The position numbers and the translations under genes were made by a program. From IMG/VR virus record IMGVR_UViG_3300045988_163888, positions 1 to 62,808 of that record: a stretch of DNA of 62,808 nucleotides. One strand, written 5' to 3'. The notes under the pieces were generated by a model that did no database searches, was not told the DNA's origin, and saw nothing but the letters and a program-made list of their open reading frames with translations. Below are positions 4,281 to 62,808 of the stretch, one piece after another. How positions within the stretch are numbered: the stretch's first letter is position 1; each line of letters begins with the position of its first letter. This stretch comes from a virus.

Positions 4281-5231
4281 TCAAGCCGCAAGGGTAGAAG
4301 TGAGAATTCCAGCCTCAGTTCCGGCGAGAATGTTGTAGTCTCCCACGACCGGAATACCTTTGATTCGGACGTTGCCTTCCGTGTCAACCGTAACAAGCGA
4401 GCTGAAGGAGTTGTCGCCCGCCGCGCGGCTGTACTTGGAAGCGAGGATATCTGCCAGTTCCGGAGATGCGTAAATACGGGCATTCGTGCCGTTTCCACGC
4501 ACACCATTGGCGATTCCGATGAGGTCCGCATAGCTCGGCAGATTGTCTTCCGTGATGTTGACAAAACCCATGATGTACTTGGGGTTTTCGAGCTGGAGAC
4601 CAATCATGGAGGTAACGTCAATTGCCCATCCAGTTTCACCGCCGGAAAGCGTGCCGAGATTGCCTCCCCAGAGGTTGTCCGTGGTGAAAAACGAGCCTTC
4701 AGCGCTTCCGTTCGTGCGGTTGTCGTTGTACAGGCCGCAGTTTTCGCCAGCGGACCAGCGGACCGCAACCATAGAGTAGTACTTTTTCTCGCTGGTGTCA
4801 GTGACTGACGCGGTGCAGGACTTGACGCGCTTCATTTCCATCGCACGCTTGAGCATGACATCATAATAGATTGCCTTGTCAAGGGACGCGCCCGCAAGCT
4901 TGAGGATAGCCGGAAGACGGCGACGGAGATACTCTTCTTTCCCGCGCATTGCCTCCGCTTTATCCTTGCCGATTTCGAGCTTGCCGCCAATCTTGAACAG
5001 CGGAGTTTCTCCGAGTTCGGTGAGCGCGGTAACGAGCGGAAGCGGCGCGTCAAGGTCAACCAGAGTGGGACCCGTAACGTCCTTCACACGTTCGAACACG
5101 TTCTTGATTCCATGAGTTGCCGCCTGAAAGGGGATCTCCTTCACAATGACAGCATCCTCAACGAGGTAGTCGATAAGCTGGCTCTGCTTCGGAGCCAGTG
5201 CGACTGCGACTTCATACATGTTGTTTTTCAT
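4281..5231 (-). CDS. major capsid protein (putative)
   Basis: 316 aa ORF following scaffold gene in canonical portal / head-morphogenesis / scaffold / capsid order. Confidence 0.55.
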   Translation of the reverse strand: MKNNMYEVAVALAPKQSQLIDYLVEDAVIVKEIPFQAATHGIKNVFERVKDVTGPTLVDLDAPLPLVTALTELGETPLFKIGGKLEIGKDKAEAMRGKEEYLRRRLPAILKLAGASLDKAIYYDVMLKRAMEMKRVKSCTASVTDTSEKKYYSMVAVRWSAGENCGLYNDNRTNGSAEGSFFTTDNLWGGNLGTLSGGETGWAIDVTSMIGLQLENPKYIMGFVNITEDNLPSYADLIGIANGVRGNGTNARIYASPELADILASKYSRAAGDNSFSSLVTVDTEGNVRIKGIPVVGDYNILAGTEAGILTSTLAA

Positions 5232-5284: not shown

Positions 5285-5995
5285 TTAGCCCTTCAGCGAG
5301 CTCGCGATATCCAGAAAAATGTCTCCCGTGGAACCCGCTTTTTCAGCGCCGCAAGGTCCATTTCCCGGTTTGGAGCCGCCCGGGGTTGAGGCAACGTAGC
5401 AGTTAAAAAGGTCTGCTTTTGCCGGAATCCAGTCTTTGACCGCTTTACCCTTGAAAGGTGCAAGGTCTCCGACCTCATCGATCGCAAACATATCTTCGTA
5501 ATCCTCAAGCATGGAGTAGATTTTGGACTTGTCGTATTTCGCATCAAGTGCTTCAACGATTTCTTTCAGCTTGCCGTGCACTTTTGTTCTTTTGTCGACG
5601 GCTTCCAGTTCGTCAAGGCGTTTCTGACGCGCTTCAAACTGCGTCTTGTAGCTGTCGCGCTCTTTCTCCGTCGCACGGAGCCGCTTTTTGTAATCAAGCA
5701 GTTCTTCGTTCGACTTGCCGCCGCTTGACTTGAGGTTCTCAAGTTCATCAAACCGCTCCCGGATGCTCTCCGAATCGCCGAATTCGTCCACAAATGCGCG
5801 GATTTTCTCTTTTGCCGCTTTGTGGTCATTCCGCTCTTTTTCAAGCGCGTTTTGCAGTTTCTTCACATCCTCATCTGTTTTGCCGGAGGGCATCCCTTCG
5901 ACATCCAAATAAAACGCGCCATCGCGCTCTGTGTAAAGCTTCTTGAGTTCCTCTGCCACATCGTTCAGATTTTCGACCTTAAATTTCAATCCCAT
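5285..5995 (-). CDS. scaffolding protein (putative)
   Basis: highly charged coiled-coil-like sequence (KKLQNALEKERNDHKAAKEK...) between head morphogenesis and capsid genes; ATG 5995 with AGGAG RBS. Confidence 0.5.
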   Translation of the reverse strand: MGLKFKVENLNDVAEELKKLYTERDGAFYLDVEGMPSGKTDEDVKKLQNALEKERNDHKAAKEKIRAFVDEFGDSESIRERFDELENLKSSGGKSNEELLDYKKRLRATEKERDSYKTQFEARQKRLDELEAVDKRTKVHGKLKEIVEALDAKYDKSKIYSMLEDYEDMFAIDEVGDLAPFKGKAVKDWIPAKADLFNCYVASTPGGSKPGNGPCGAEKAGSTGDIFLDIASSLKG

Positions 5996-8855: not shown

Positions 8856-11420
8856 TCAGCCAACGTTGCCAGCTGAGGCAACCACGATTTTTCGGGACGC
8901 GTATTCGCCAAGCAAGAAATAGCCCGTCAAGTCGTAAATATGGTCTTCCTGCGTGGTATCCACATCGTCAGGGTCTCTTTGTGATCGCTGTAAAACAGGG
9001 ACCGTGCGTATAAAATTCCGGCAATGGTCAAACACAAACAAGCCCGCGTCCGCATCGCGCTCGATTGCGCCTGTAAGACGCTCCCTAAGTAGCGTCAACA
9101 TCTGATGCCGAGTTCCCGGCGCTTTGTTGCAAGGTGCAAAAAACACGCCGTATTCCTCAAACTGCTTCGCAACAGTCACTTGCGCCGCTGATGTTGAGGC
9201 AAAAATTGCAGAATCGGCAATACTTTCATCAACGCGATAACCGAGCATAGCCTCCGTTTCCTTGATACGCTCTGCACGGTCTCTTATGCTTGACTTGTCG
9301 CCCTCGTTCGCCTTGCCTGTGGAACCGTAAAGCTCTTGTATTAAAAAAGCGTCACCTGCGATTGTTGGACGTTTTTCACCGTCCGCTGTTATGTAGTCAG
9401 TGCCATCAGATACAGCAAACCAGCCGACCGCCCATGGATGTGAGTTGCCATCGTCGTAACTCTTGACAATGTACCACGATTCCGGAATCTTGAAGCGCGG
9501 CATAACGTGAATTTGTTCGTTCCATAGGTCATCAACCGCCCCGCCCGCCGTGATGTTCCAGTCGCCTTCCAACATTGCTTTAATCAGCCAATCTTGCCCC
9601 AGTCCACGCAGGCGGTTCGCGTACTCTTCCTGATTCAGCGACGGATTATCTGACAGCTTCGCAGGCACAAATTGACGGAGCATGCCGCCTTCCGAGGCAG
9701 ATGTTTTCCATATCGTTTCGGCTGGTTTAGGGTCAATAAACATCGATTTTACCCAGTTATGCCCCGGTCCGCCGGGGTTAGACCCGCACAAAATCTTAGG
9801 GAAAGTTAAGTTCGGAATTAACTTCCTGATAGCCGGGTCAATTGCAACTTGCTTTGACACTCGACAGCGACCGCGCAAAAACCGGTATTGATACTCTGTA
9901 AAGTGCGTCAATTCGTCAATCAACAGCACGCCGATTTCCGCGCCCTGATACTTCATGACATCTTTTTCGTACTGGCAATGGCACAAATGTATAGTGCTCC
10001 CAGATTCAACAAAACGGATTTTTGGCGGGTTTGTTGTAATGCGCACGCTCTTATGTTCCACCGCTTCAGCAAGCAACGCCGGAAAGCCTGTTTCCCCCTC
10101 AAAATGATTTTTCAAAAGGTCATCACTCAACCGCCGGAAAAGGTACACTTGCAAGCCCCGGACGTTGTCGCAGAGCATAATGGCAAAAATTCGCATTAAA
10201 AACGAGTTATGCGTGGGTATACAGCTTTTCCCGGCAAGATAACAGCTGGACGCGGAATCAACTTGGATGCACTTGACAGGCACACTCTTACAACGCTCCG
10301 CAGATACAATCATCCGCCGCCGTGAGTATGCATTCCGTGCCGTTTTTATGCGTTTTTTGTATCTGTCCAATTGAGTTATATCAGCTTGCCACGGGATAAA
10401 GCGCACGCGGTATTTTATGCCGCAATCTTTGCCATTTAGACGCGCTATACCATACGTAAGAGTTGCCTTAATTCCAAGCGAGTTAAGCAAAAAGCATACC
10501 GATACCGCAATGTCTTTGTTTATACTGGTGTACTCACAATGCCCATTCTCGCCAACTGTACCGTCCGAATCCATAAAACCGCGCAAAAGCTCCATACGGT
10601 TTTCAATCGTGGTAAAAAGATACCGTTCCGGCACATGCTTATTGTGTATCAGATTCAGGCGTTTAAGGAGCGGAGTTAAACCGATTATCCCCCACTTATA
10701 TTTCGCTGTCCGTTTGGTAACTTCAAATCCGCAAGCGCGGATGTAAGGGATAACATCGTCATCGCCCGTGGAAAAGCCGCAACCGTCGGAGTTACCATCA
10801 CCAAGCCACAACCCTAGTACATAAGGAGGGATTATCAGTTCCTCCCGCGATTCCGGCATTTCTACTGCCCTGCAAACCGCTACAGAGTGATTCAGCCGTC
10901 CACCCACTCGCAAAGTTGCCGCAATGGTTTCCGTCGTTACGACAGATTCAAACTTGCGGCCTTTGTTACAATACACGCGTTTTGAGTTTGCAACCGCCAA
11001 ATCCGGACGTTTGCCCATGCCACGCAAGGGACGTTTTGCGCGCCGATTTGCGCGATATTCTGGCGTGCTTTTGCGTTCCGCTTCTCTTTGTGCGTCTGTC
11101 TTTGTCACCCACTGATGCAAATCGTCAGCGATGATTTTAGAGCCGTCATCAAAAACGACTTTCCGGCATGGTCTATCCGTCAAAATTGGCGTTTCTGCTA
11201 TGACGTTGCAAGGCTTTCCGTTTTCGTCAAAAACAACATCCCCAACATGTACATCAGCCATTCGCTTAAAGCCGCAAGTGGTCAAAATTGGCGTTTCAAC
11301 CCATAGGGCTTTCCCACCCCCCGCAGCCCCGCCGTACAAAATCTCTGTCGCGTCCGTTTTCAGCACGCAACCTTGCCGCGGATGCAACGCCGGAAGCCCG
11401 ATTTCGTTCACTGCCATCAT
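8856..11420 (-). CDS. terL: terminase large subunit precursor containing an intein with LAGLIDADG homing endonuclease
   Basis: Walker A split as GGAAGGGK / SFLMRI, Walker B LLIDELTHF, C-terminal nuclease-like domain; 371-aa insertion with intein blocks and LGLWLGDGNSDG / LLRGFMDSDG motifs. Confidence 0.85.
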   Translation of the reverse strand: MMAVNEIGLPALHPRQGCVLKTDATEILYGGAAGGGKALWVETPILTTCGFKRMADVHVGDVVFDENGKPCNVIAETPILTDRPCRKVVFDDGSKIIADDLHQWVTKTDAQREAERKSTPEYRANRRAKRPLRGMGKRPDLAVANSKRVYCNKGRKFESVVTTETIAATLRVGGRLNHSVAVCRAVEMPESREELIIPPYVLGLWLGDGNSDGCGFSTGDDDVIPYIRACGFEVTKRTAKYKWGIIGLTPLLKRLNLIHNKHVPERYLFTTIENRMELLRGFMDSDGTVGENGHCEYTSINKDIAVSVCFLLNSLGIKATLTYGIARLNGKDCGIKYRVRFIPWQADITQLDRYKKRIKTARNAYSRRRMIVSAERCKSVPVKCIQVDSASSCYLAGKSCIPTHNSFLMRIFAIMLCDNVRGLQVYLFRRLSDDLLKNHFEGETGFPALLAEAVEHKSVRITTNPPKIRFVESGSTIHLCHCQYEKDVMKYQGAEIGVLLIDELTHFTEYQYRFLRGRCRVSKQVAIDPAIRKLIPNLTFPKILCGSNPGGPGHNWVKSMFIDPKPAETIWKTSASEGGMLRQFVPAKLSDNPSLNQEEYANRLRGLGQDWLIKAMLEGDWNITAGGAVDDLWNEQIHVMPRFKIPESWYIVKSYDDGNSHPWAVGWFAVSDGTDYITADGEKRPTIAGDAFLIQELYGSTGKANEGDKSSIRDRAERIKETEAMLGYRVDESIADSAIFASTSAAQVTVAKQFEEYGVFFAPCNKAPGTRHQMLTLLRERLTGAIERDADAGLFVFDHCRNFIRTVPVLQRSQRDPDDVDTTQEDHIYDLTGYFLLGEYASRKIVVASAGNVG
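10197..11309 (-). other. intein (Ala1, Trp-B12 / Cys-F4 / Thr-G5 = class 3-like) with double LAGLIDADG endonuclease, inserted in TerL P-loop
   Basis: N-terminus ALWVETPILTT-GFKRMADVHVGDVV aligns to block A with Ala in place of Cys1; block B GSKIIADDLHQW; C-terminus SCIPTHN followed by Ser +1. Confidence 0.7.
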
Positions 11421-24211: not shown

Positions 24212-24510
24212 CGTTCTTTCCCTCCCTCGAAATTTCGCCAAAACTCCATGTCCGCGGGTGATTCAAACCACTTTTTCCAGCAAGCCGCGCAATCATACGC
24301 TTCTCCGCAACTTCTAATCGGCGGGCAGTCCCATTTCGCGCAAAAATAAGCCAGTGCGAAATTGTCCAGCGCTTTCAACCGTTCTCCATTCGTGCCAAAC
24401 GCTTTCGGGCATTCCCCGTCCACGCGCCGGAAGCCGCCGAAACGGTCGCAAACAACGTACTTGCAATCGCCCGGAAACTTCCGAGCAAAGTTACATTCAA
24501 GACAGTTCAT
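24208..24510 (-). CDS. hypothetical Cys-rich protein
   Basis: 12 Cys in 100 aa. Confidence 0.45.
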   Translation of the reverse strand: MNCLECNFARKFPGDCKYVVCDRFGGFRRVDGECPKAFGTNGERLKALDNFALAYFCAKWDCPPIRSCGEAYDCAACWKKWFESPADMEFWRNFEGGKER

Positions 24511-25754
24511 TTCAGTTTCCTTTCGGTTAATTCAATGCGCATTCCAATCCAGCGCATTACGTTGACGCACATTGAGTTTCCGCACGCCTTGTATCGGTGT
24601 GAATCGGGACATTCTTCTTCCGGCTTGCCTCTCCACGGAATACGCGTCCAGTTGTCCGGGAAGCCCATCAGCCGCTCACATTCGACGGGAAGCAGGATGC
24701 GGACGGATGTGGCATAGACTAAAGGAAGATTGTTTCCTCCGGTCCCGGCGTTTGCGGAGATAACCGGGGCACAATCGACTCTCTTAACTCGGCTGTCCTT
24801 CGCATGATTTTCATAGCATACCGCCTGTTCTCCGTCCGAATTCGCCATCAAAGCAATCGGAGCCTCATGGTTACATGTTATCGCCGAGGGACAACCTGAA
24901 GAGATTTCCGCATTGCTCTGTCCGGACGCCATGACCAACGTCGGCCCGTTCACGTTTTTGCGCCGTGTGTCCACCGTCGCGGACACACGTCCGGTAATAG
25001 CCCCGTTATATCCATCGCATCCAAGCACATTCAGAAGCTCGCTGTCTTCGCCTGTTCCTGCAATGCTTCTGCCAGCTCTTTCGGCAAAGCGTTTCCTTTT
25101 CGTTCTGCGCGGCGGAGTATTCCGGAACACGCTTTCCGGCTCAAATAATACTCCTGCGGGACATCGGAAATCGGAACCAAAATGTCCGACAACGAACACA
25201 CGTCGTCGTCTTTGCGGAATGGCACGAGGGAATCCGTCCACTCTGACGTACTGAGCGTCCAGCACTCTCCATGCGCAAGAATACCCGATTTCATCAATTT
25301 TTCGCAGGAACGCCCGGAAGTCATCCCCTCGATTTGCACTGAAAACACCGGGGACGTTTTCCCACACGAACCATCTGGGACGCATAGTCTCAAGAAGTTC
25401 GCAATAGGCGAGGCAGAGGGCGCTTCGCGGGTCATTAAGTCCATCCCGCTTTCCCGCGACGCTAAATCCCTGGCACGGGGTCCCTCCGACGAGGAGATCA
25501 ACTCCTCCGGGAACAACGACATCTGCTCCAGATTCATTTTTGAACCGCTGAAGTTTTCCTGTCTCATTTTCGATTGTCTCCACTTTGATTTTTGTCATAT
25601 CTCCCAAGTTCGGAACTTCGGGAAAACGATGTTTCAGGACTGCGCACGGGAACGGTTCAATTTCGGAAAACCAAGCTGCTTTCCATCCGAGCGGCATCCA
25701 CGCAAGGCTTGCCGCCTCAACGCCGCTGCATACTGATGCGTAAATCATGTTCAT
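24507..25754 (-). CDS. DNA (cytosine-5)-methyltransferase
   Basis: motif IV GGTPCQGFS, motif VI VWENVPG, motif I-like YASVCSGVEAAS. Confidence 0.85.
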   Translation of the reverse strand: MNMIYASVCSGVEAASLAWMPLGWKAAWFSEIEPFPCAVLKHRFPEVPNLGDMTKIKVETIENETGKLQRFKNESGADVVVPGGVDLLVGGTPCQGFSVAGKRDGLNDPRSALCLAYCELLETMRPRWFVWENVPGVFSANRGDDFRAFLRKIDEIGYSCAWRVLDAQYVRVDGFPRAIPQRRRRVFVVGHFGSDFRCPAGVLFEPESVFRNTPPRRTKRKRFAERAGRSIAGTGEDSELLNVLGCDGYNGAITGRVSATVDTRRKNVNGPTLVMASGQSNAEISSGCPSAITCNHEAPIALMANSDGEQAVCYENHAKDSRVKRVDCAPVISANAGTGGNNLPLVYATSVRILLPVECERLMGFPDNWTRIPWRGKPEEECPDSHRYKACGNSMCVNVMRWIGMRIELTERKLK

Positions 25755-34935: not shown

Positions 34936-35004
34936 GTACACCATAAACCGTAAATTTCAAGCCGCAAAATAAAAAATATTTGATTTTTTTTGCTTTATGG
35001 TGTA
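34936..35004. promoter_or_regulatory. lysogeny-switch operator region: inverted 11-mers TACACCATAAA (34937..34947) and TTTATGGTGTA (34994..35004), with divergent promoters
   Basis: perfect inverted repeats 46 bp apart between divergently transcribed RHH and XRE genes; TTGATT-N18-TATTTT on plus overlaps right half-site. Confidence 0.5.
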
Positions 35005-35039
35005 TTTTACCTCAAGAAAGGAAACGAAAGGAGGCTCCT

Positions 35040-35432
35040 ATGTTGGCAGAAGAAGCACTGAACACACTCAAAAAAGAGTATTTCACCGAGGACCAAACGC
35101 AAAAGCAGATTGCCCAGAGGCGCAACATCGACCAACAGACAATCAGCAAAATTTTGAACGGAACCTGCCAAATTGGCAACATGGAAGTTTCGACTTTCCA
35201 AAAAATGTTCCCGCATTCGACAATCAACGAAGGCGGGAAAATAACAACAGGAGATTCAAGCCTTGTAATAGGACACAATAATTCAGGGAGCGCAAATTAC
35301 AACATGTCCGGAGACACACAAAAAAAAGACTTGCTCCTAGACATGCTGGAAGAAACGCTCAACGATAATTCGTTGAGCGCAGAAGACAAGGTTAAACTTT
35401 GTCAAGTTACGCTAAAACGTAGAAAAAGCTAA
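35040..35432 (+). CDS. XRE-family HTH repressor-like protein
   Basis: AAAGGAGG RBS; QKQIAQRRNIDQQTISKILNG HTH; divergent from early operon, adjacent to integrase. Confidence 0.6.
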   Translation: MLAEEALNTLKKEYFTEDQTQKQIAQRRNIDQQTISKILNGTCQIGNMEVSTFQKMFPHSTINEGGKITTGDSSLVIGHNNSGSANYNMSGDTQKKDLLLDMLEETLNDNSLSAEDKVKLCQVTLKRRKS

Positions 35433-35458: not shown

Positions 35459-35707
35459 ATGGGTATAAACATAAAGCGCGACAATCGGGGGACTGTCACG
35501 CTGAATGAAGCTCTGGACGGAGGTTGCATTGATAACCGCACTATTATCAATCTGCCTCCTTACGTGGTGTGGGCTGCGGCTGGAATTGCGCTGGCATTTT
35601 GTGCTACTGCAATAGGTTGTCGCCTCATCCCGCAAGAGGTACACCACACATTCGACCAAAGCGCAAATGTGCATATTTCTAGCACGGGGAACGGAGGGTT
35701 GAAGTAA
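35459..35707 (+). CDS. small membrane protein
   Basis: one TM helix (VVWAAAGIALAFCATAIGC). Confidence 0.4.
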   Translation: MGINIKRDNRGTVTLNEALDGGCIDNRTIINLPPYVVWAAAGIALAFCATAIGCRLIPQEVHHTFDQSANVHISSTGNGGLK

Positions 35708-36810
35708 TGGCTTTACGCTGTATAAAAGGTTGCTATTACGCCTATTTTAGGGACGTTGACGGGCGGCTCAAGACCCGTACGCTCAAAACCAAAGACCCGG
35801 TAGACGCTATCAGACTGCACGCAGAATACATGTCTTTTGTGCTCAAACGCAAGCAAACGCATGTTATAGTCAAGGACTTCCCCGAGTTCTTCCCGCAGGC
35901 TCATTTAGCTGTAACACCGCTTCCAAAAACCGTTCTTCCCCTCCCTAAGGAGGGGGAACATAGCCGAAACGGTTTGCCGCTCGCAAGCATGATTGATGAA
36001 CTGGAAAAAATTCAGCCATTGCCTGTCACAAGCCGCCGAATCATAGCCAGATTTTTAAAAAGTATGACTGTTAAATACATGGATATGGTAACTCCGGAAA
36101 TGGCACAAAATTACCTAGAACAAAATTTCTCCCACGGGAGAAACTACAAGTCCTACAATAACAATAAGGGCGTGTTAAACAAGGCTTTCCGGCTATTGCT
36201 TGTCAAAGCAAAATTGACGCGCTCTCCGTTCGAGAGTATCGTATCACGCAAGATAAAAAATGTGCTTTCGCATCGTCCGATTACAGCAACAGAGTTCAAG
36301 CGCATTTACCGTGCCGCCAACCTTCCGACGCGCGTCGCCGCCGCTTTAGGCTTTTTCGCCGGAATGGACATATCAACAGCCTTTTCCATACCTTGTAACG
36401 CAATTTACCTTAAAGAGCGCCTGATACGCTGGAAACGCCCTAAATCTGGGCAATGGTTTACATGTGGTATACAGCCGGAATTACTTCAAATCCTTACAGA
36501 GCTTAACTTCCCCGCAGATTCCGAAAAACCGCTCCTAAGCCACTTAAACTCAAAAACAGCCCATTCCGCTGGAGTGGACTACAAAAAGCTTTTCGAAAAA
36601 CTAAAAATTAAAGACACAGAGGAGGGCAAAGCAAGTTTCCATAGCTTCCGCGCATCGTTCTTCACGCGATGCGACGCGGGCAATCTGCACAGACGTACAA
36701 CATCTCTTGCCGGAGGACACAAGAGCGATGCGATGAACGACCTGTACAGCCATGACGTTTCAGCCGCCCACGAGGTCGAAAAATTGCCGAAAATCGGGCT
36801 TTTTTCGTGA
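35707..36810 (+). CDS. int: tyrosine-type site-specific integrase
   Basis: catalytic motifs HSFRASF (HxxR) and LAGGHKSD...NDLYSH (H...Y); GGAGGG RBS. Confidence 0.85.
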   Translation: MALRCIKGCYYAYFRDVDGRLKTRTLKTKDPVDAIRLHAEYMSFVLKRKQTHVIVKDFPEFFPQAHLAVTPLPKTVLPLPKEGEHSRNGLPLASMIDELEKIQPLPVTSRRIIARFLKSMTVKYMDMVTPEMAQNYLEQNFSHGRNYKSYNNNKGVLNKAFRLLLVKAKLTRSPFESIVSRKIKNVLSHRPITATEFKRIYRAANLPTRVAAALGFFAGMDISTAFSIPCNAIYLKERLIRWKRPKSGQWFTCGIQPELLQILTELNFPADSEKPLLSHLNSKTAHSAGVDYKKLFEKLKIKDTEEGKASFHSFRASFFTRCDAGNLHRRTTSLAGGHKSDAMNDLYSHDVSAAHEVEKLPKIGLFS

Positions 36811-36820
36811 CTTGCGGCTG

Positions 36821-36984
36821 TATGTAACTGAGTATGTAAAAATCAATTTTGTAGCGGTTTTAAAAGGTTCGACTCCCTTCACCCGCTCCATTAATTCCAC
36901 TATTTTGAACTCAAACTTGCAAATGAAGCACTTTTTTAAACTGCCTCTCGAGCGTGCTTTTGTATGTAACTTTGTATGTAACTT
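36821..36984. repeat. arm-type repeats TGTATGTAAC (36821, 36962, 36974) and GTATGTAAA (36833) flanking attP core
   Basis: seen directly; flank tRNA-like core immediately downstream of int. Confidence 0.55.
36863..36890 (+). other. attP core: 3' end of a tRNA gene (T-loop GGTTCGACTCC, acceptor CACCCGC, discriminator, CCA)
   Basis: AAGGTTCGACTCCCTTCACCCGCTCCA matches tRNA T-arm plus acceptor 3' strand. Confidence 0.55.
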
Positions 36985-36990
36985 TTCAAG

Positions 36991-40429: not shown

Positions 40430-40885
40430 ATGGCACATCACGATACAGGCGATAACAAGATTTTTGCTTGCTCCCTATACTTTGATACTCTTGCGCGTGA
40501 GTTAGCTGTACCAGTCACCATAGCACGCTCTAGGCAAGGCATGGAGACAGGCGCGGACGCGGTAAGGAGCTGTAAGGCTATCTTTGACACAGGCGCGACA
40601 TCGTCTATGATATCAAGCGACATAGCGCGCGCCTTGCACTTGCAAAGCATCGACACTGCCCTTGTCACTGGTGTGCATGGTACAGAGCGCGTATCTATAT
40701 ATACTATAGATGTACGCTTTAAGGGAGGCTTTACACTCTCTACTCTGCAAGTAGCAGAGGCTGGAGCTGATGCAGGCTTTGACCTGCTGATAGGTATGGA
40801 CGTGATAGCGCGTGGCGCGATGCTTCTGTCATCGCATGACAGGCGCACGCTCTTTGCCTTTTTTTACCCGCAAAATCGTCAATAA
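40430..40885 (+). CDS. retropepsin-like (clan AA) aspartic protease, single domain
   Basis: AIFDTGATSSMIS catalytic motif and FDLLIGMDVIARGAMLL flap/dimer motif (Asp_protease_2 / gag-asp_protease pattern). Confidence 0.7.
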   Translation: MAHHDTGDNKIFACSLYFDTLARELAVPVTIARSRQGMETGADAVRSCKAIFDTGATSSMISSDIARALHLQSIDTALVTGVHGTERVSIYTIDVRFKGGFTLSTLQVAEAGADAGFDLLIGMDVIARGAMLLSSHDRRTLFAFFYPQNRQ

Positions 40886-40960
40886 TCAATAATTGCTATC
40901 AGAAAATCAAGAAAAATTGAGTTCAAAACAAGAAAAATGCAAAAATTTTTATATTTTCGC

Positions 40961-40988
40961 TTGTAAAGTATCAGATATGGTATATATT
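40961..40988 (+). promoter_or_regulatory. promoter TTGTAA-N16-TATATT driving the 41.2-43.0 kb cassette, followed by ~180-nt structured leader
   Basis: same architecture as 13138..13165; leader hairpins GGGCGG-N8-CCGCCC (41061..41080) and GCCCGC-CGGA-GCGGGC (41146..41161). Confidence 0.45.
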
Positions 40989-41176
40989 AAGCACTGTAAC
41001 AGGGAGAGCAACCCTGAGACAAAAAAAGCTCTTTGAAAATTAAGAAAGCGACCCGGGCGGAACCACCCCCGCCCAAAAGCAAACGCGGTTTTAGGTCTTT
41101 ACGCAGAACAACCAACCAAACGACAAAAAAAAGAAAAAAATTACCGCCCGCCGGAGCGGGCAAGAGGGAGAAGAAA

Positions 41177-41377
41177 ATGAAATTTACGGAAGAACGCCTG
41201 TTTGAGATCGCCGAAGAGGAATACGCCACCGCCGGGCTGGATGCCCACAATGAGGGCACAGCCCAGTGGGCGTACGCAAGCGCCGCGCAGGAGTACGCGG
41301 ACGAAGAAGAGGTCCGCGCGGAGTTGCGCGGATTTATTGAGCAGGAAAAGGATTTCGCCCGCGAAATGGGCGAGTGA
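41177..41377 (+). CDS. small acidic protein (66 aa), anti-defense candidate
   Basis: GAGGGAGAAGAAAATG RBS; very acidic (about 25 percent Asp/Glu); first gene after strong promoter, followed by HTH gene. Confidence 0.45.
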   Translation: MKFTEERLFEIAEEEYATAGLDAHNEGTAQWAYASAAQEYADEEEVRAELRGFIEQEKDFAREMGE

Positions 41378-41397
41378 AAAAGAAGGAGAAGACAAGA

Positions 41398-41972
41398 TGA
41401 ACGTCGAAAAGATGATGAGTGAAAAACGCGAAATCATAAGATACCCCTTCAGTCGCGCATACATGCGCGGGATAAGAAAAGGGCTTCGTATGAATTTGAC
41501 GGAGCTGAGCATGGTCATCGAAGAACGCCTGCCCCGGTTTCGCGGATGCAGTTTGTCGGACTTTACGCCGCTCGCAGAGCGGCGCAAGCGCGGCAAGATC
41601 TTTTTTTTCGAAGGGCTTTGCACCGCGCACCGCGCACGCACAAAAAAGGCGGGACCGCGCAAGCGCGTCGTGAGGCACCGCCAGTCGCCAAGGCCCAAGG
41701 TCAAAATCACCCCAGCCCCGCTTGTCCCGGGGGTTGATTACGATGAGAACGCAAAAAGCGTTTCCATCGTGACCAAAGACATGGGGCTCTGCTGGTGTGG
41801 ACCTTGCAGATGCCGCGTCTTTGAGGATGGTACCATACAGTATCATGGTACTACAGAGTGGCAGAGCTCTGACCGCCAGCGCCCGGATTTTGAGGAGAAA
41901 CGCCCTTATCACTCTACGATAAGGGAAGAGGACTACAAAAAAGCCCTTGAACGCCTCAAAAAATCTGAATAA
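41398..41972 (+). CDS. HTH (XRE-like) protein with Cys-rich C-terminal domain, Aca-like candidate
   Basis: AAGGAGAAGACAAGATG RBS; MNLTELSMVIEE...SLSDFTPLAERRKRG HTH-like; CWCGPCRCR. Confidence 0.5.
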
Positions 41973-42417
41973 CCACACCGCCCCGCTTCCGGCGGGGCAA
42001 AAAGGAGAAGAAAAATGGCTAAAAAGACTTGGACTATCACTTACATTGATACCTTCACTTAAAATCGAGGCTGAAAGCCTCGTAAAAGCCCTTGAGAAGG
42101 TGAAACATAAGCTATCCTATGCGAATTTGAAAGGAGTAAGCTTGAACTACGCAGACTTGAGCTGTGCCGACTTAAGAGGTGCAGATTTGAGATACGCGAA
42201 TTTGAGATACGCGAATTTGAGCTACGCGAATTTGAGATACGCGAATTTGAGCTACGCGAATTTGAGCGACGCGAATTTGAGCTACGCGAATTTGAGCTAC
42301 GCGAATTTGAAGGGCGCAGACTTGAACCATGCGGACTTTGAGGGAGCTGGTTTAAGGGGAGCTGAGTTGAAGGGAGCTGACTTGAAAGGGGCAAAGGGAC
42401 TGTCGAGACTAGGCTGA
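41947..42417 (+). CDS. pentapeptide-repeat protein
   Basis: consecutive A(N/D)L(S/R/K)(Y/G) pentapeptides (YANLRYANLSYANLRYANLSYANLSDANLSYANLSYANLKGADL); start codon uncertain (TTG 41947 or TTG 42046). Confidence 0.8.
   Translation: MNASKNLNNHTAPLPAGQKGEEKWLKRLGLSLTLIPSLKIEAESLVKALEKVKHKLSYANLKGVSLNYADLSCADLRGADLRYANLRYANLSYANLRYANLSYANLSDANLSYANLSYANLKGADLNHADFEGAGLRGAELKGADLKGAKGLSRLG
42190..42310 (+). repeat. seven to eight near-perfect tandem copies of 15-bp unit TACGCGAATTTGAG(A/C) inside the pentapeptide-repeat gene
   Basis: seen directly in sequence. Confidence 0.85.
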
Positions 42418-42468
42418 CACTTAACAACAAATCCGGGCGAAAAGCCCGGCGTAAAGAAGGAGAAGAAC

Positions 42469-42753
42469 ATGTGGTACAAACTTGAACAAATCAATTACCC
42501 CAAAACGCGCGCCGACATCATCTCTAGGGCGCGCGAAAACGGTTTTTCGGTCGCAGATAACGACCCTATCTGCGTGTACATAGATTACAGAACGGGCATG
42601 CCGGCCGATCTCATTTTCATAAAAACCGCAAAAGAAGTCATTGAAATGAATGACGATTTTGTACTAAACGGCGATTTGAGCGACTGGCCCGACGAACTAG
42701 AAATCAAAGATTTGACGATGTGGGGGAACCCTCACACAAAAACAAAATATTGA
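42469..42753 (+). CDS. hypothetical protein
   Basis: GAAGGAGAAGAACATG RBS. Confidence 0.45.
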   Translation: MWYKLEQINYPKTRADIISRARENGFSVADNDPICVYIDYRTGMPADLIFIKTAKEVIEMNDDFVLNGDLSDWPDELEIKDLTMWGNPHTKTKY

Positions 42754-42763
42754 GGAGGACAAA

Positions 42764-43057
42764 ATGTATATCTACTGCAACGGAATCAAAACCAACGTGG
42801 AAGGCGACCTCTTCCACGCAAAGGAGGTAGCAGACGCTAACGCCTGCTACAGTCAGTCAGACATATACATCATCGACGATGATGATATGTCGAACTCAAT
42901 CGTGCGCCGCTGGCGCGGTTGCATGGATGGCGTGGAAGAGTGTGAAAACGCTATCCAAATCGGCAATTCCGGATTTTATGAGGGCTGGACTGATTGTACG
43001 CCGCGCGAAGCGGCATCAGTCGCAGAAAGTCCGGTTTTCGAAGAATACAACGAGTAA
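42764..43057 (+). CDS. hypothetical acidic protein
   Basis: GAGGAGGACAAAATG RBS. Confidence 0.45.
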   Translation: MYIYCNGIKTNVEGDLFHAKEVADANACYSQSDIYIIDDDDMSNSIVRRWRGCMDGVEECENAIQIGNSGFYEGWTDCTPREAASVAESPVFEEYNE

Positions 43058-43123
43058 AATCAAAAAAAACACCGCGCCTTTCACAAAAACGGGAGGCTCG
43101 GTTTAAAACTGGAGAAAAAAGCA

Positions 43124-43572
43124 TGAAAGGACAGAAGCTGTACAAAATCGCGTTTACGGAAGATAGCCCCGCGTTCGCCGAGACGGCATATGTGCATCTC
43201 TACAACCTTGCCGGGATGCACGTAATCGGGAACCTGCAGTTTTTCTACTACCGTCAACAGCTCCTTGAAAAGCTATCCTTTGAGGATATCTTCGAGGCAT
43301 CGGGATTAACCTCAGAGGCTTTTTGCAAGGCGCTTGGAGTAAAATACTCAACCTTTACAGCCTACAAAAACGGTCGGCTGATTATCCCGCAGGCACGCAA
43401 GGAGCTTGCGCTGAACATAGCGGAATCCGCCATTGCCGTCCAGCGGAATGGCTTTTTCGTGGAATCGCCGCAGGAAAAAGCTGCAAAAGAAGCCGCAAAA
43501 AAAGAGCTGATAAAAAAAATTGAAAAAAGCTCCGCCGAAGACTTGAAAAAGCTGGAAGCGGTGTTAAATTAA
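43124..43572 (+). CDS. XRE-like HTH protein
   Basis: ASGLTSEAFCKALGVKYSTFTAYKNGRLI HTH. Confidence 0.45.
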
Positions 43573-43682
43573 AGAACAACAAAAATTCTCTTTTTGTTGT
43601 TGCCGAAAGGCTATTGCGACTTTTAGCTTGGAAGAGCGAAAAAGGCAGACAGCCGCCCCCTAAAAAGGGCGGCTTTTCTGTT

Positions 43683-44117
43683 TTAACGCGTCCCTGCGAC
43701 CGCGCGTCCATACTCATGCAACGCCCTGTCAAGCACTCGCAAAAGGTGACAATCAGGCGCGCACTTGGTACAGTCGCCGTGGCAAGCAAAATTTTTGACC
43801 AGCTTTTTAGCTTGGCAATCAGGGCAAATCCCAGACCGCAGAGCGCACTTGTCACACCGCCGCCGACAATGATAGCAAGCAATCTTCCCGCGTTCTGATT
43901 CCCGCTCTTTCCGTTCTCTTTTGAGTGTAAATTTCAGCTTTTCGATGTGCCGCAAAGTGTACAAAAACCGCACGCCGCTTTTCTGCTTTTCGACCGCGTC
44001 CGGAGTGCCTAAGCGCCGCCGCGTGTAGCTGATGCTCTTCAAGCCGAGTAAATCTGCCGCGTTCCGGACGCTGTAAAATTCCCCGTTTTCGGACGTCCCA
44101 ACCATTGTTTCAGCCAT
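43683..44117 (-). CDS. HTH plus Cys-rich zinc-finger regulator
   Basis: N-terminal HTH (YSVRNAADLLGLKSISYTRRRLG) and C-terminal CYHCRRRCDKC...CPDC...CHGDCTKCAPDCH. Confidence 0.45.
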   Translation of the reverse strand: MAETMVGTSENGEFYSVRNAADLLGLKSISYTRRRLGTPDAVEKQKSGVRFLYTLRHIEKLKFTLKRERKERESERGKIACYHCRRRCDKCALRSGICPDCQAKKLVKNFACHGDCTKCAPDCHLLRVLDRALHEYGRAVAGTR

Positions 44118-44620: not shown

Positions 44621-44667
44621 AAAACATGCAACAGTAATGTAACAGTAATGTAACAGTAATGTAACAG
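44621..44667. repeat. tandem repeat (AGTAATGTAAC)x3 plus partial copy, preceded by imperfect palindrome CTGAAAAGTTGAAACTTCAAACTTTCAG
   Basis: seen directly in sequence in 170-bp intergenic region. Confidence 0.7.
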
Positions 44668-45144
44668 TTACTCTTTATGCCTTGAGATATAGACGCGTGC
44701 GGAAGTGTAATCGCGTTTCGCCTGTTCGCAATCGCGGATAAGCTCTTCCACGCGCTTTTCAAGGTGTTGCAGTTTGATACTGGATTCCGTCTGGACTTTG
44801 GTAATGCCCGTGGCGATTTCGACCTTGAGAGCGTCAATCTTGCTGTTGATGTACCAAAGAGAGCCAGCCACTACAAGAGCGCCAACCACAAAGCACGTGA
44901 GGCACGTTTTACCGCGCTCCGCGTTCGCGTTGTTCCGCTCATCAAGGCGACCGATTTTTTCTTCATTCCCAGCGTGACATCCCCCGACCGCTTCACTCAT
45001 CTTGATTCCCCCCTTGTTGTTTGTATCATTCCCGTGTTCAGGCGTTTTGTTTTCGCCCGTAATGGTTTGTTTGGCGCGTTCAAAGAGCTTGGACGCTCCC
45101 GCGCACGGGAATGGACACGCAGAGCAGTTCCCTGAACACGCCAT
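44668..45144 (-). CDS. membrane protein (likely starts at MSEAVGG, 45000; upstream Cys-rich extension uncertain)
   Basis: GGGGGG RBS before ATG 45000; TM helix LTCFVVGALVVAGSLWYI then coiled coil. Confidence 0.4.
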   Translation of the reverse strand: MACSGNCSACPFPCAGASKLFERAKQTITGENKTPEHGNDTNNKGGIKMSEAVGGCHAGNEEKIGRLDERNNANAERGKTCLTCFVVGALVVAGSLWYINSKIDALKVEIATGITKVQTESSIKLQHLEKRVEELIRDCEQAKRDYTSARVYISRHKE

Positions 45145-62273: not shown

Positions 62274-62808
62274 TCACAAGTCTTCTTCGATTTCAACCCA
62301 CTCCTCGAGCTGCTTTACTGTCTTTTTGCCTGTCAGAACAGCTTCAACGCGCTCCTTCCGTTCCGCGTCGGAATATTCGTCCGCACGTTTTTTCCGGTGT
62401 GTCTTGATAAATTTCCTGCGCTCCGCAATCACGGAAGGCAAGTTGCGCTCATCAAACATCTTGTTAGTGTATTCCGCACGTGACAGGTTATCAATGTCAA
62501 TAAGCATGGTGCGCAAATCCAGCCCTAACATGTACATGTCGCTGTAAAGAGTGCCGACCTGCTTCAGCAGGCAGTCTTTCTCCTTGATTTCCAGCTCTTT
62601 TTCACAAAAAGACGCCGCCCTCAGCCAGATAACATCACGGACCGAGAGCGGCTTTTTAAGGATACTCAAATCCTTGTATTCAGAGGCGAGTAAAATCAGT
62701 TCGGCGTATTCGTCTCCGTCACCGCCGTTCCGGATTTTTTTTTTGCCTCCTCACGTTCTGCCTTGACCTTCGCGGAATACTCATGGTTAAATTCCCACAC
62801 CGCCTGAG
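62274..62808 (-). CDS. tail assembly chaperone GT: 3' end of G plus -1 frame C-terminal extension (window 62734..62808 duplicates 1..75)
   Basis: -1 frame opens exactly at the A10 run (TGA immediately upstream in that frame), has no independent start codon, and ends at 62274 just upstream of the tape measure gene; classic G/GT architecture. Confidence 0.7.
62734..62808. repeat. 75-bp terminal redundancy of the window (identical to 1..75), i.e. circular closure point
   Basis: exact sequence identity of both window ends. Confidence 0.95.

Follow-up and report, generated by a model that had tools for sequence, protein, structure and literature searches.

A hypervariable array of small accessory genes in a temperate-type human gut phage, with a possible role against host defence

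Phage genomes carry morons and mosaic hotspots that are shaped by Hendrix-type modular exchange at gene boundaries, a moron being a single promoter-gene-terminator unit. The AcrIIA1-type loci of Listeria prophages encode a bifunctional protein of 149 aa, which bears an HTH and serves both as an anti-CRISPR (Acr) protein and as a regulator. In acr-aca operons, anti-CRISPR genes are followed by the gene for an HTH repressor, Aca (PMC9410906, PMC8633003), and an inverted repeat within the core promoter is a hallmark of Aca-controlled promoters (PMC9410906). In conjugative elements and in the leading regions of plasmids, ArdC clusters consist of numerous small ORFs arrayed on the same strand (PMC7213743, PMC11541004). 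Anti-restriction activity of ArdC was shown experimentally (PMC7213743), and anti-defence genes cluster in ArdC-type arrays (PMC11541004). Among pentapeptide-repeat proteins (PRPs), Qnr and MfpA are DNA mimics (PMC8145042, PMC10886550), which dimerise through C-terminal helices into a rod of a length comparable to the gyrase DNA segment (PMC10886550).

We analysed a stretch of 62,808 nt (the window; IMG/VR record IMGVR_UViG_3300045988_163888). Its source is a complete, temperate-type phage of about 62.7 kb from human gut metagenomes, and the host appears to be Firmicutes-like, judged by the Shine-Dalgarno (SD) sites. The locus at 41.0-43.1 kb is a hypervariable accessory-gene array and a hotspot of cassette swapping (Table 1). 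The array is bounded by an aspartic-protease gene at the 5' flank, conserved at 83-96% identity in all six relatives, and by a conserved XRE-type HTH gene (HTH149) with a terminator at the 3' end. An integrase-like gene lies at 35707-36810, and the repeat motifs directly 3' of it are possibly attP sites. A placement of the cassette in the accessory region next to attP, on the strand opposite to the structural genes, had been proposed and holds loosely: the array is about 4 kb away from the integrase and the possible attP, and its strand is opposite to that of the head and tail genes. A megablast search with the 39-45 kb region found no match among 50,697 cultured phage records, the HTH149 family and the portal were not found in 185,579 species genomes, and IMG/VR contributed two relatives only.

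Table 1. Positions of array features and their flanks in the window.
Feature	Position	Strand	Remarks
Retropepsin-like aspartic protease gene, 151 aa	40430..40885	+	conserved 5' flank; Pfam Asp_protease_2 1.9e-10, gag-asp_proteas 1.3e-9
Two direct repeats AAA(T/A)CAAGAAAAAT	40904..40938	+	21 bp apart, upstream of -35; repeat search
Sigma-70-type promoter-like site TTGTAA-N16-TATATT	40961..40988	+	9/12 consensus matches; hexamers and spacing kept in six relatives
Leader hairpin/inverted repeat CAGGG-N7-CCCTG	41000..41016	+	directly downstream of -10 hexamer; conserved
Optional 131-nt leader segment	41028..41158	+	two GC-rich hairpins; in 3/6 relatives only, alignment gap in L015, L017, L003
g66, 66-aa acidic protein	41177..41377	+	pI 4.2; strong SD; D+E 19/66 (29%)
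g191, basic 191-aa ORFan	41397..41972	+	pI 10.0; two modules; dN/dS 0.11
GC-rich stem-loop 5' of PRP ribosome-binding site	41978..42000	+	junction where relative L001 diverges (breakpoint 42004)
PRP gene stub	42015..42062	+	ATG, strong SD, 15 codons, TAA at 42060-42062; 5-bp deletion between 42051 and 42052
PRP gene body, about 19 repeats	42052..42417	+	out of frame with start codon; Pfam Pentapeptide, repeat register
15-bp tandem DNA repeat, 8.4 copies	42185..42310	+	95% identical; encodes (A)NL(S/R)Y units; tandem array in PRP gene
g94, 94-aa acidic cassette protein	42469..42753	+	pI 4.6; GC hairpin 5' at 42433-42449
g97, 97-aa acidic protein	42764..43057	+	pI 4.07; in 4/6 relatives, truncated in one, absent in one
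HTH149, XRE-type HTH protein	43123..43572	+	candidate regulator; last array gene before terminator; in 6/6 relatives
Intrinsic-terminator-like hairpin with T-run	43651..43674	+	ends + strand array where minus-strand late genes meet it

Six cassette orders were found between the same flanks: 66-191-PRP-94-97; 66-191-102-98; 143-121-98; 97-102-145-153-99; 66-143-96; and 66-131 with a truncated 97. Downstream of one conserved promoter stand two to five small genes that can replace one another, always with HTH149 and the terminator at the end. The cassettes are each preceded by a GC-rich stem-loop and a strong SD, AAGGAGAAGAA. The upstream stem-loops of cassette genes had a mean of -13.2 kcal/mol versus -6.6 kcal/mol for 28 neighbouring genes (p = 0.0036). 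Breakpoints fall at the intergenic hairpin/SD junctions (42004, 42752, 41390 and 42761), scars of the g66 3' end are left in L011 and L017, and a homologue of g94 (79% identity) occurs within the different cassette order of L017. To judge by these comparisons, cassettes are exchanged between related phages at the hairpin/SD junctions. With its own promoter and terminator and a variable content between conserved flanks, the locus has the make-up of a moron or accessory hotspot. Like phage morons, it combines an autonomous promoter and terminator, in or by the late region, with exchange at short conserved intergenic junctions; unlike them, it strings several genes together, closes with a dedicated HTH gene and has a hairpin-SD unit before each cassette.

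The cassette products are mostly small and acidic (pI 4.2 for g66, 4.6 for g94, 4.1 for g97, 4.1 for g131 of L003 and 4.35 for g145 of L015), and two, g191 and g121 of L011, are basic. The description of the first gene as coding for a 66-aa, about 25 percent acidic protein at 41177..41377 was accurate. Either g66 or a g66-type N-domain takes the first array position in 5 of the 6 relatives, L015 being without g66. Purifying selection was detected on g66 (dN/dS 0.06-0.21), and values for g66, g191 and HTH149 together ranged from 0.05 to 0.22. No match to g66, g94 or g97 was found in Pfam, PHROG or NCBIfam, nor was g66 matched in the PDB or, by tblastn, in phages and plasmids, and the g66-family profile matched no solved structure. 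At E<=1e-3, 28 cluster representatives were collected among 1.84 billion proteins, with W31, A32 and E49 invariant; by these matches, g66 is the founder of a small uncharacterised family. Locus searches with the family profile gave no confirmed match, the family alignments being very divergent.

Two distant family members, independent of each other and both on short metagenomic contigs, associate g66 with ArdC: P0140 starts 3 bp downstream of an ArdcN+MPTase-PolyVal gene, and P0147 shares a same-strand array with another such gene. The array thus resembles the ArdC clusters in its same-strand succession of many small ORFs and in the company that g66 relatives keep, directly downstream of, or arrayed with, ArdcN+MPTase-PolyVal genes. 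It differs in that the phage array has no ArdC gene, and the association comes from distant g66 relatives on short contigs of unknown element type. Because the products are mostly small acidic ORFans and the g66 family accompanies ArdC genes elsewhere, we infer an anti-defence role. A row of small exchangeable genes behind a promoter, closed by a regulator gene, is also an arrangement typical of counter-defence islands in phages. We give an even chance to the reading that the locus is an island expressed early, for host interference or anti-defence, and regulated by the downstream HTH protein. The cassette products would be synthesised soon after entry and interfere with the host, most plausibly by inhibiting its defence, and the terminal HTH149 would feed back on the array promoter, as Aca proteins do. 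Profile searches for Acr, Aca and anti-restriction families had been suggested in the earlier note. In Pfam, PHROGs, NCBIfam and the PDB, no homology to a known anti-defence protein (Acr, Aca, Ard, Ocr or others) was found for window proteins or for the cassette proteins of relatives, and no cassette protein from the window or the relatives matched PADLOC, which models defence proteins.

The promoter-like site upstream of g66 was previously described as near-consensus. Its position is right, but the grade is too high, because 9 of 12 consensus positions match. The same scan found 8 promoter-like sites in 5.3 kb versus 4.0 +/- 2.0 in shuffles, so that the match alone is not significant. The site is located in a 291-nt gap 3' of the upstream gene, and in an alignment all six relatives retain the two hexamers at a distance of 16 nt, with a varying spacer sequence that is the least conserved part of the promoter region. 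Position and conservation support the call of a putative promoter. Around it, AT-rich imperfect palindromes and direct repeats were seen upstream of -35, and a hairpin with 5-bp arms downstream of -10. The two copies of CAAGAAAAAT are the only ones in the genome, and both are kept in all six relatives; they are possibly a regulator site or an UP-like A-tract. Within the core -35/-10 promoter, no conserved inverted repeat was found in the six relatives. As a side observation, TGTAACAG by the promoter recurs in a tandem repeat at 44.6 kb, with an unconvincing count.

The leader was likewise expected to be structured, and the region 40995-41179 does fold (-46.7 kcal/mol, z = -3.06; 3 of 200 shuffles did equally well). 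However, 131 nt of it are missing from three of the six relatives, and the first hairpin is the sole part common to them. In this hairpin, L017 shows one compensatory change from A-U to G-C, and one pair is broken in L003. Read on the minus strand, the hairpins at 41052-41077 and 41144-41163 resemble terminators. An Rfam scan of the whole window identified no RNA family, so that the structured leader is not a known riboswitch or sRNA; tRNA genes were not found either.

The anatomy of the locus also suggests an island of lysogenic conversion, with expression of its genes from the prophage; the lysogen would gain through superinfection exclusion, defence encoded by the prophage or effects on host physiology, and not through counter-defence during infection. 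The array has the tail genes on one side and the integrase/attP module on the other, lies on the opposite strand and has its own promoter and terminator, which is classic moron anatomy, and the neighbouring aspartic protease matches the PADLOC candidate defence model PDC-M08B at 1e-5. Furthermore, no operator of at least 10 nt common to the putative CI/Cro-like switch region and the array promoter was found, and the array therefore need not be repressed in the lysogen. However, the products are very small acidic ORFans, unlike the enzymes or membrane proteins that are typical of exclusion or defence genes, the cassette proteins themselves lack PADLOC matches, and the g66 family associates with anti-restriction genes of the ArdC type. 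We consider a benefit to the lysogen possible, though somewhat unlikely.

Under the preferred anti-defence reading, the question of the regulator arises. An HTH protein at 41398..41972, directly after the small acidic protein, had been put forward for this role. A gene is indeed present, but it starts at 41397, position 41398 being out of frame, and an HTH was not detected in its product, g191. Pfam, NCBIfam and PHROGs showed none, phmmer and profile searches of the PDB gave noise only, and hhalign assigned a probability of 0.5% to a match with the HTH149 family. The AlphaFold model (pLDDT 33) was uninformative. The two modules of g191 each stand alone elsewhere, the N-module as L015:4002-4295 and the C-module as P0002, and only 2 related clusters were found among 5.8 billion. 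The protein is basic and of unknown fold, and is probably not the regulator. Since an HTH is not demonstrable in g191, the architecture of a small acidic protein followed by an HTH protein does not fit the first two genes.

The candidate regulator is HTH149 instead. Its XRE-like HTH was recognised from sub-threshold Pfam matches, an AF2 model and fold searches; it is central (about residues 53-82) and accompanied by an extra helical region. In Pfam and NCBIfam, only generic sub-threshold HTH matches were obtained, and a profile from 9 homologues, run against all PDB sequences including the Aca1, Aca2, Aca7 and Aca10 chains, gave noise only. HTH149 is not the main repressor of the phage, because a CI-like HTH (35040-35432) sits beside the integrase gene, within a CI/Cro-like switch that spans 34.7-35.4 kb. 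As in acr-aca operons, a promoter, a changing set of small genes and a conserved HTH gene at the end form one transcription unit in a phage accessory region, and HTH149 has the generic XRE fold that is common to Aca1, Aca2, Aca7 and Aca10. Unlike in those operons, the HTH gene lies four genes further downstream than the second gene that had been taken for it, the array has neither sequence kinship to any Aca or Acr nor an inverted repeat in the core promoter, and nothing was found that would connect it with CRISPR. A true acr-aca operon, in which at least one of g66, g94 and g97 inhibits a CRISPR-Cas effector and HTH149 represses the promoter as a new Aca family, is improbable in our view. The comparison with AcrIIA1-type loci (PMC9410906) yields a similarly mixed picture. 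Common features are the Firmicutes-like host suggested by the SD sites, an accessory locus near the lysis/integration end, and an HTH protein of about the same length (149 aa) that combines the HTH domain with a further helical region. The HTH of HTH149, however, is central and not N-terminal, and the PDB search returned no match to AcrIIA1 chains.

Some g66 relatives suggest a regulatory function of another kind. One family member, P0137, is fused to HTH_31, and a weak HTH lies two genes downstream of P0152 in L026. Together with the first place of g66 or its N-domain in most relatives, this would fit an auxiliary regulatory module, in which HTH149 is a second transcription factor for the lysis-lysogeny decision, g66 its acidic partner (antirepressor or co-factor), and the other cassettes are passengers. 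On the other hand, L015 lacks g66 and yet keeps HTH149, the phage has its separate CI/Cro-like switch, and the fusion is known from a single contig of 1.4 kb. Such a module therefore seems highly improbable.

The third gene of the array was reported as coding for a pentapeptide-repeat protein at 41947..42417. The domain is genuine (PF00805, E = 2.2e-31; about 19 repeats in register, roughly 5 coils), and it thus surpasses the minimum of 8 contiguous A(D/N)LXX repeats by which we defined PRPs. The gene model, in contrast, had to be revised, since the gene starts with the ATG at 42015 and is frameshifted in the window. This ATG carries the same SD as the neighbouring genes. Other starts were rejected: TTG 41947 has no SD and overlaps g191, and TTG 42046 and GTG 42100 also have no SD, while the family alignment fixes ATG 42015. 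Two contigs of the same phage from another sample, L007 and L008, contain an intact allele with 5 extra bases (ATACC) between 42051 and 42052. These bases join the ATG to the repeat frame, and the resulting N-terminus matches a module present in P0013, P0020, P0022, P0044 and P0077, which identifies the allele in the window as frameshifted. The module comprises about 35 aa (KTWTITY..TPSLKVEAES.VKAVEKVKDKL); it is in frame with the repeats in L007 and L008 and split in the window. A sequencing error is less likely as the source, since three assemblies carry the frameshift. Coverage was low, however: the window contig had 4.8x and the one with the intact allele 1.3x. The PRP gene in the window was not called by a public gene caller. 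The 15-bp tandem array, inside which contigs L007 and L008 break, is a recent slippage expansion.

Members of the PRP subfamily were found in other phage contigs, among small ORFs, and the PRP gene is, by this distribution, one mobile cassette of a subfamily that occurs in unrelated phages. PRP-like ORFs were present in 495 of 50,697 cultured phage records (about 1%), with no functional annotation among the matches listed. A genuine PRP domain, the spread of the subfamily between unrelated phages, the frequency of PRP-like ORFs in cultured phages and the precedent of Qnr and MfpA are all consistent with a PRP as the functional core of the locus, acting as a DNA mimic against gyrase or a DNA-binding defence enzyme. 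We nevertheless regard this idea as hardly probable; the earlier note, too, had pointed to PRPs such as Qnr and MfpA as DNA mimics. Inactivated by the 5-bp deletion, the PRP cannot be a working part of the array here, unless a truncated product is re-initiated, and the five relatives that have a different cassette order lack the gene. The intact protein would be basic (135 aa, pI 9.25, net charge +5; repeat domain net +2), and the subfamily, with pI values of 4.9-9.3, has no conserved negative charge. A check on charge only thus comes close to refuting a DNA-like surface. The scores of 38.9 bits for NCBIfam penta_rpt_Qnr and 31.8 for MfpA are far under the cutoffs of 240 and 360, and the nearest sequences in the PDB belong to consensus-designed and cyanobacterial PRPs and not to Qnr or MfpA. 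The window PRP, with about 19 repeats and roughly 5 coils, has the PF00805 architecture in common with Qnr, MfpA, AlbG and McbG. It differs from them by being basic and not acidic, by its length (theirs is about 180-220 aa) and by its distinctive N-terminal module; the last repeat is directly followed by the C-terminus KGAKGLSRLG, which, judged from sequence only, leaves no C-terminal dimerisation helix.

The broader proposal of an accessory cassette behind its own promoter, possibly with an anti-defence role, is retained, with the swap hotspot, the terminal HTH149 and the ArdC and HTH neighbours of g66 relatives in its favour, whereas the specific arguments from an HTH in g191 and from PRP mimicry are abandoned. 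In a more far-reaching version, the locus would be a kind of anti-defence island not described before, from gut phages of the Firmicutes type. Here g66 would represent a new class of small acidic inhibitors shared with ArdC elements, and HTH149 would found a new Aca-like family of regulators. The phage-specific PRP subfamily, with its N-terminal cap module ahead of the repeats, would supply an inhibitor of variable length: its 15-bp array would expand and contract by slippage, and a frameshift would turn off its expression in a fraction of the population. The hairpin-SD units would be the junctions for cassette movement between phages. Taken as a whole, we think this version quite unlikely.

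The main outcome of the analysis is the correction of the gene models and the removal of the DNA-mimic argument; the biology is what we infer from the locus. Through the g66 family, phage arrays are connected with mobile elements that bear ArdC, and the PRP subfamily adds to a large number of uncharacterised PRPs from phages. Should the array prove to be an anti-defence island, g66, g94, g97 and the alternative cassettes of the relatives would be inhibitor candidates from an uncultivated human-gut phage lineage, and the HTH149 marker together with the aspartic-protease flank could be used to find further ones through guilt by association.

Homologues of a downstream XRE-type HTH protein (HTH149, 149 aa) led to five further phages of the lineage. 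In all of these related phages, the region is flanked upstream by a retropepsin-like aspartic protease gene and downstream by the HTH149 gene followed by a terminator, and between the flanks each phage differs in gene content. With cassette genes named by product length in residues (PRP, pentapeptide-repeat protein), the order is 66-191-PRP-94-97 in the window and 66-191-102-98, 143-121-98, 97-102-145-153-99, 66-143-96 and 66-131-(truncated 97) in the relatives. Among the six orders, the PRP cassette was found in the window's lineage only. The breakpoints of swapping are intergenic junctions that combine a GC-rich stem-loop with a conserved SD, and stem-loops upstream of cassette genes have lower energies than those of neighbouring genes (-13.2 versus -6.6 kcal/mol, p = 0.0036). 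Remnants of g66-type 3' ends (...EEKEFAAERGE stop, hairpin, SD) lie downstream of g143 in two relatives' contigs (L011, about 5150-5206; L017, about 5660-5700) and are scars left where a cassette inserted into g66 or beside it.

GC-rich stem-loops precede nearly every cassette gene in the window and in the equivalent stretches of contigs L003, L011, L013, L015 and L017. They lie 10-20 nt ahead of a strong SD and often have a GNRA-like loop; several resemble minus-strand terminators. The cassette products are mostly small and acidic, and searches of Pfam, PHROG, NCBIfam and PADLOC gave no assignment for any of them. Convergent with the array is a 144-aa protein with several CxxC motifs, which every relative keeps and for which the searches gave no family.

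The first gene of the cassette, g66, indeed encodes a small acidic protein, with 29% acidic residues, and is under purifying selection. An exhaustive HMMER search yielded 28 cluster representatives, some of them the N-terminal domain of longer proteins; W31, A32 and E49 are invariant in the family. Genomic context was inspected for five members, on short contigs. One starts 3 bp past an ArdC-type gene (ArdcN + MPTase-PolyVal), another lies in a same-strand array with a second ArdC gene, another has a weak HTH two genes downstream, and another has a fused HTH_31 domain. ArdC has been shown to counteract restriction (PMC7213743), and arrays of this kind are where anti-defence genes cluster (PMC11541004). 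By guilt by association, this ArdC/HTH link is the sole pointer to a function for any array gene.

The second gene, g191, is present, starting one base earlier than described, but its designation as an HTH protein did not hold: no HTH was detected by Pfam, PHROGs, NCBIfam, a PDB profile or hhalign against the HTH149 family. The product is basic and an ORFan, 5.8 billion proteins having yielded only two related clusters; both its modules occur singly elsewhere, and its AlphaFold model, with a pLDDT of 33, is uninformative. Like g66, g191 and HTH149 are under purifying selection. That HTH149 and g66 form an auxiliary regulatory pair we consider very improbable.

The repeat domain of the third gene is genuine (Pfam), but the gene model in the earlier note was wrong. 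Its TTG start lacks a ribosome-binding site and overlaps g191. The ATG at 42015 has a ribosome-binding site of the same type and strength as those of neighbouring genes, and in the window its frame ends after 15 codons, at 42062. In a sample from another person, two short contigs of this phage (L007, L008) carry five additional bases (ATACC) that bring this ATG into the repeat frame. The N-terminus that results, MAKKTWTITYIDNTPSLKIEAESLVKALEKVKHKL, matches a conserved module of several PRPs of other metagenomic contigs, and the window allele is therefore frameshifted. The public record's gene caller passed over this gene. Within it, a 15-bp unit is present in 8.4 copies, whose 95% DNA identity points to recent slippage expansion.

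Judged by charge only, the proposal that the PRP mimics DNA is weakened on the earlier note's own criterion: the intact protein would have a pI of 9.25 and a net charge of +5, and negative charge is not conserved because the subfamily pI spans 4.9 to 9.3. The protein scores 39 bits against the Qnr model (cutoff 240) and 32 against MfpA (cutoff 360), and the PDB sequences it matches best belong to consensus-designed and cyanobacterial PRPs. The short, 135-aa product terminates directly after the final repeat and has none of the C-terminal helices through which Qnr and MfpA are described to dimerise (PMC10886550). By profile it is a member of Pfam PF00805 outside the Qnr and MfpA families, and a DNA-mimic function centred on it is the least probable explanation of the locus. 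PRPs are common in phages, as 495 of 50,697 cultured phage records have PRP-like ORFs. Subfamily genes also lie amid small ORFs in one contig of 35 kb that has a terminase gene and in two phage-like contigs of jumbo size (about 180 kb). The latter carry a Macro-domain gene with a radical-SAM gene after it (L020, 8001-8871; L022, 1-181), as well as NrdD and TnpB (IS605 OrfB) genes; the PRP-subfamily gene overlaps the Macro-domain gene start in L020 and lies ~8 kb from the pair in L022.

The exact overlap of the window ends and the assembly of the same 62,788-bp contig twice from human-gut metagenome SAMN03283278 show that the window was assembled as a circle and is probably the complete genome of a phage, about 62.7 kb long. 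The C5 methylase offers potential self-protection against restriction, and the LAGLIDADG_3 and Hom_end domains of the 854-aa ORF suggest that a large structural or packaging gene has acquired an intein or homing endonuclease. The GTATGTAAC copies are candidate attP arm-type binding sites, and the inverted-repeat arms are candidate operators of a genetic switch. That the array is instead a moron island expressed in the lysogen is possible, if rather unlikely. Megablast of 39-45 kb against 50,697 records found no cultured phage similar at the DNA level, and HTH149-family and portal searches of 185,579 species genomes found no host genome carrying the phage. From the strong ribosome-binding sites, which are of AAGGAG type, the host may be Firmicutes-like.

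Features of the phage genome and of the array region
Feature	Position	Strand	Remark
Window ends	1-75, 62734-62808		exact 75-bp overlap
Head (portal, Mu-F-like) and tail genes		-
RecT, PD-(D/E)XK recombination genes		-
Bro/ANT antirepressor		-
854-aa ORF	8856-11420	-	beside portal gene
C5 cytosine DNA methyltransferase	24507-25754	-	Pfam 1.2e-43
Perfect 11-bp inverted repeat	34937-35005		TACACCATAAA / TTTATGGTGTA, flanking divergent gap between Cro-like (-) and CI-like XRE genes
CI-like XRE gene	35040-35432		beside integrase-like gene
Integrase-like gene	35707-36810		below Pfam threshold
GTATGTAAC, four copies	36820-36985		immediately 3' of integrase-like gene
Aspartic protease	40430-40885		DTGA motif; PADLOC candidate defence model PDC-M08B, 1e-5
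Best sigma-70 match of region	40584-40611		TTGACA-16-TATGAT, 11/12
TGTAACAG, single copy	40995		directly past array promoter's -10
Cassette stem-loops	41000-43120
Leader, bulk	41028-41158
g66	41177-41377
g191, start	41397
HTH149	43123-43572
144-aa CxxC protein	43683-44117	-
11-bp tandem repeat ATGTAACAGTA, x3.9	44626-44668		between two minus-strand tail-region genes

The array's promoter-like site lies where the earlier note placed it, but it matches the consensus at only 9 of 12 positions, and about four sites with this score are expected by chance in the 5.3-kb region. The site is credible because its hexamers and 16-nt spacing are constant across the six related phages, while the spacer sequence varies. 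The leader is more stable than shuffles (z = -3.06), but its bulk is absent from three relatives; hairpin 1, with one compensatory change, is the sole shared part. The region's best sigma-70 match lies within the aspartic protease CDS, 350 nt upstream of the promoter-like site. The tandem repeat, whose core is TGTAACAG, is possibly a site for a regulator or an iteron-like element.

These observations show a polycistronic cassette-swapping array of hairpin+SD units that is headed by a conserved promoter-like site, ends in an XRE HTH gene and a terminator, and contains a disrupted PRP gene. Host RNA polymerase would transcribe the array early after entry, the small acidic products would bind host proteins and neutralise them, with defence systems as the most plausible targets, and HTH149 would feed back on the promoter region, where CAAGAAAAAT direct repeats and a CAGGG-N7-CCCTG element are candidate sites; the hairpins may stabilise cistrons or act as exchange junctions. 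We regard this early-transcribed island with HTH149 feedback as about equally likely to be right or wrong. In layout the array is like acr-aca or anti-defence islands, as had been proposed, but none of its proteins could be related to a known Aca or Acr, and its core promoter contains no conserved inverted repeat of the kind that defines Aca-regulated promoters (PMC9410906); a true acr-aca operon is improbable. The locus is a phage accessory-gene hotspot, a known kind of region; its protein families are uncharacterised, and its PRP gene, with the gene model now corrected, is broken. The result is unsurprising, and the value of the locus is as a source of candidates.
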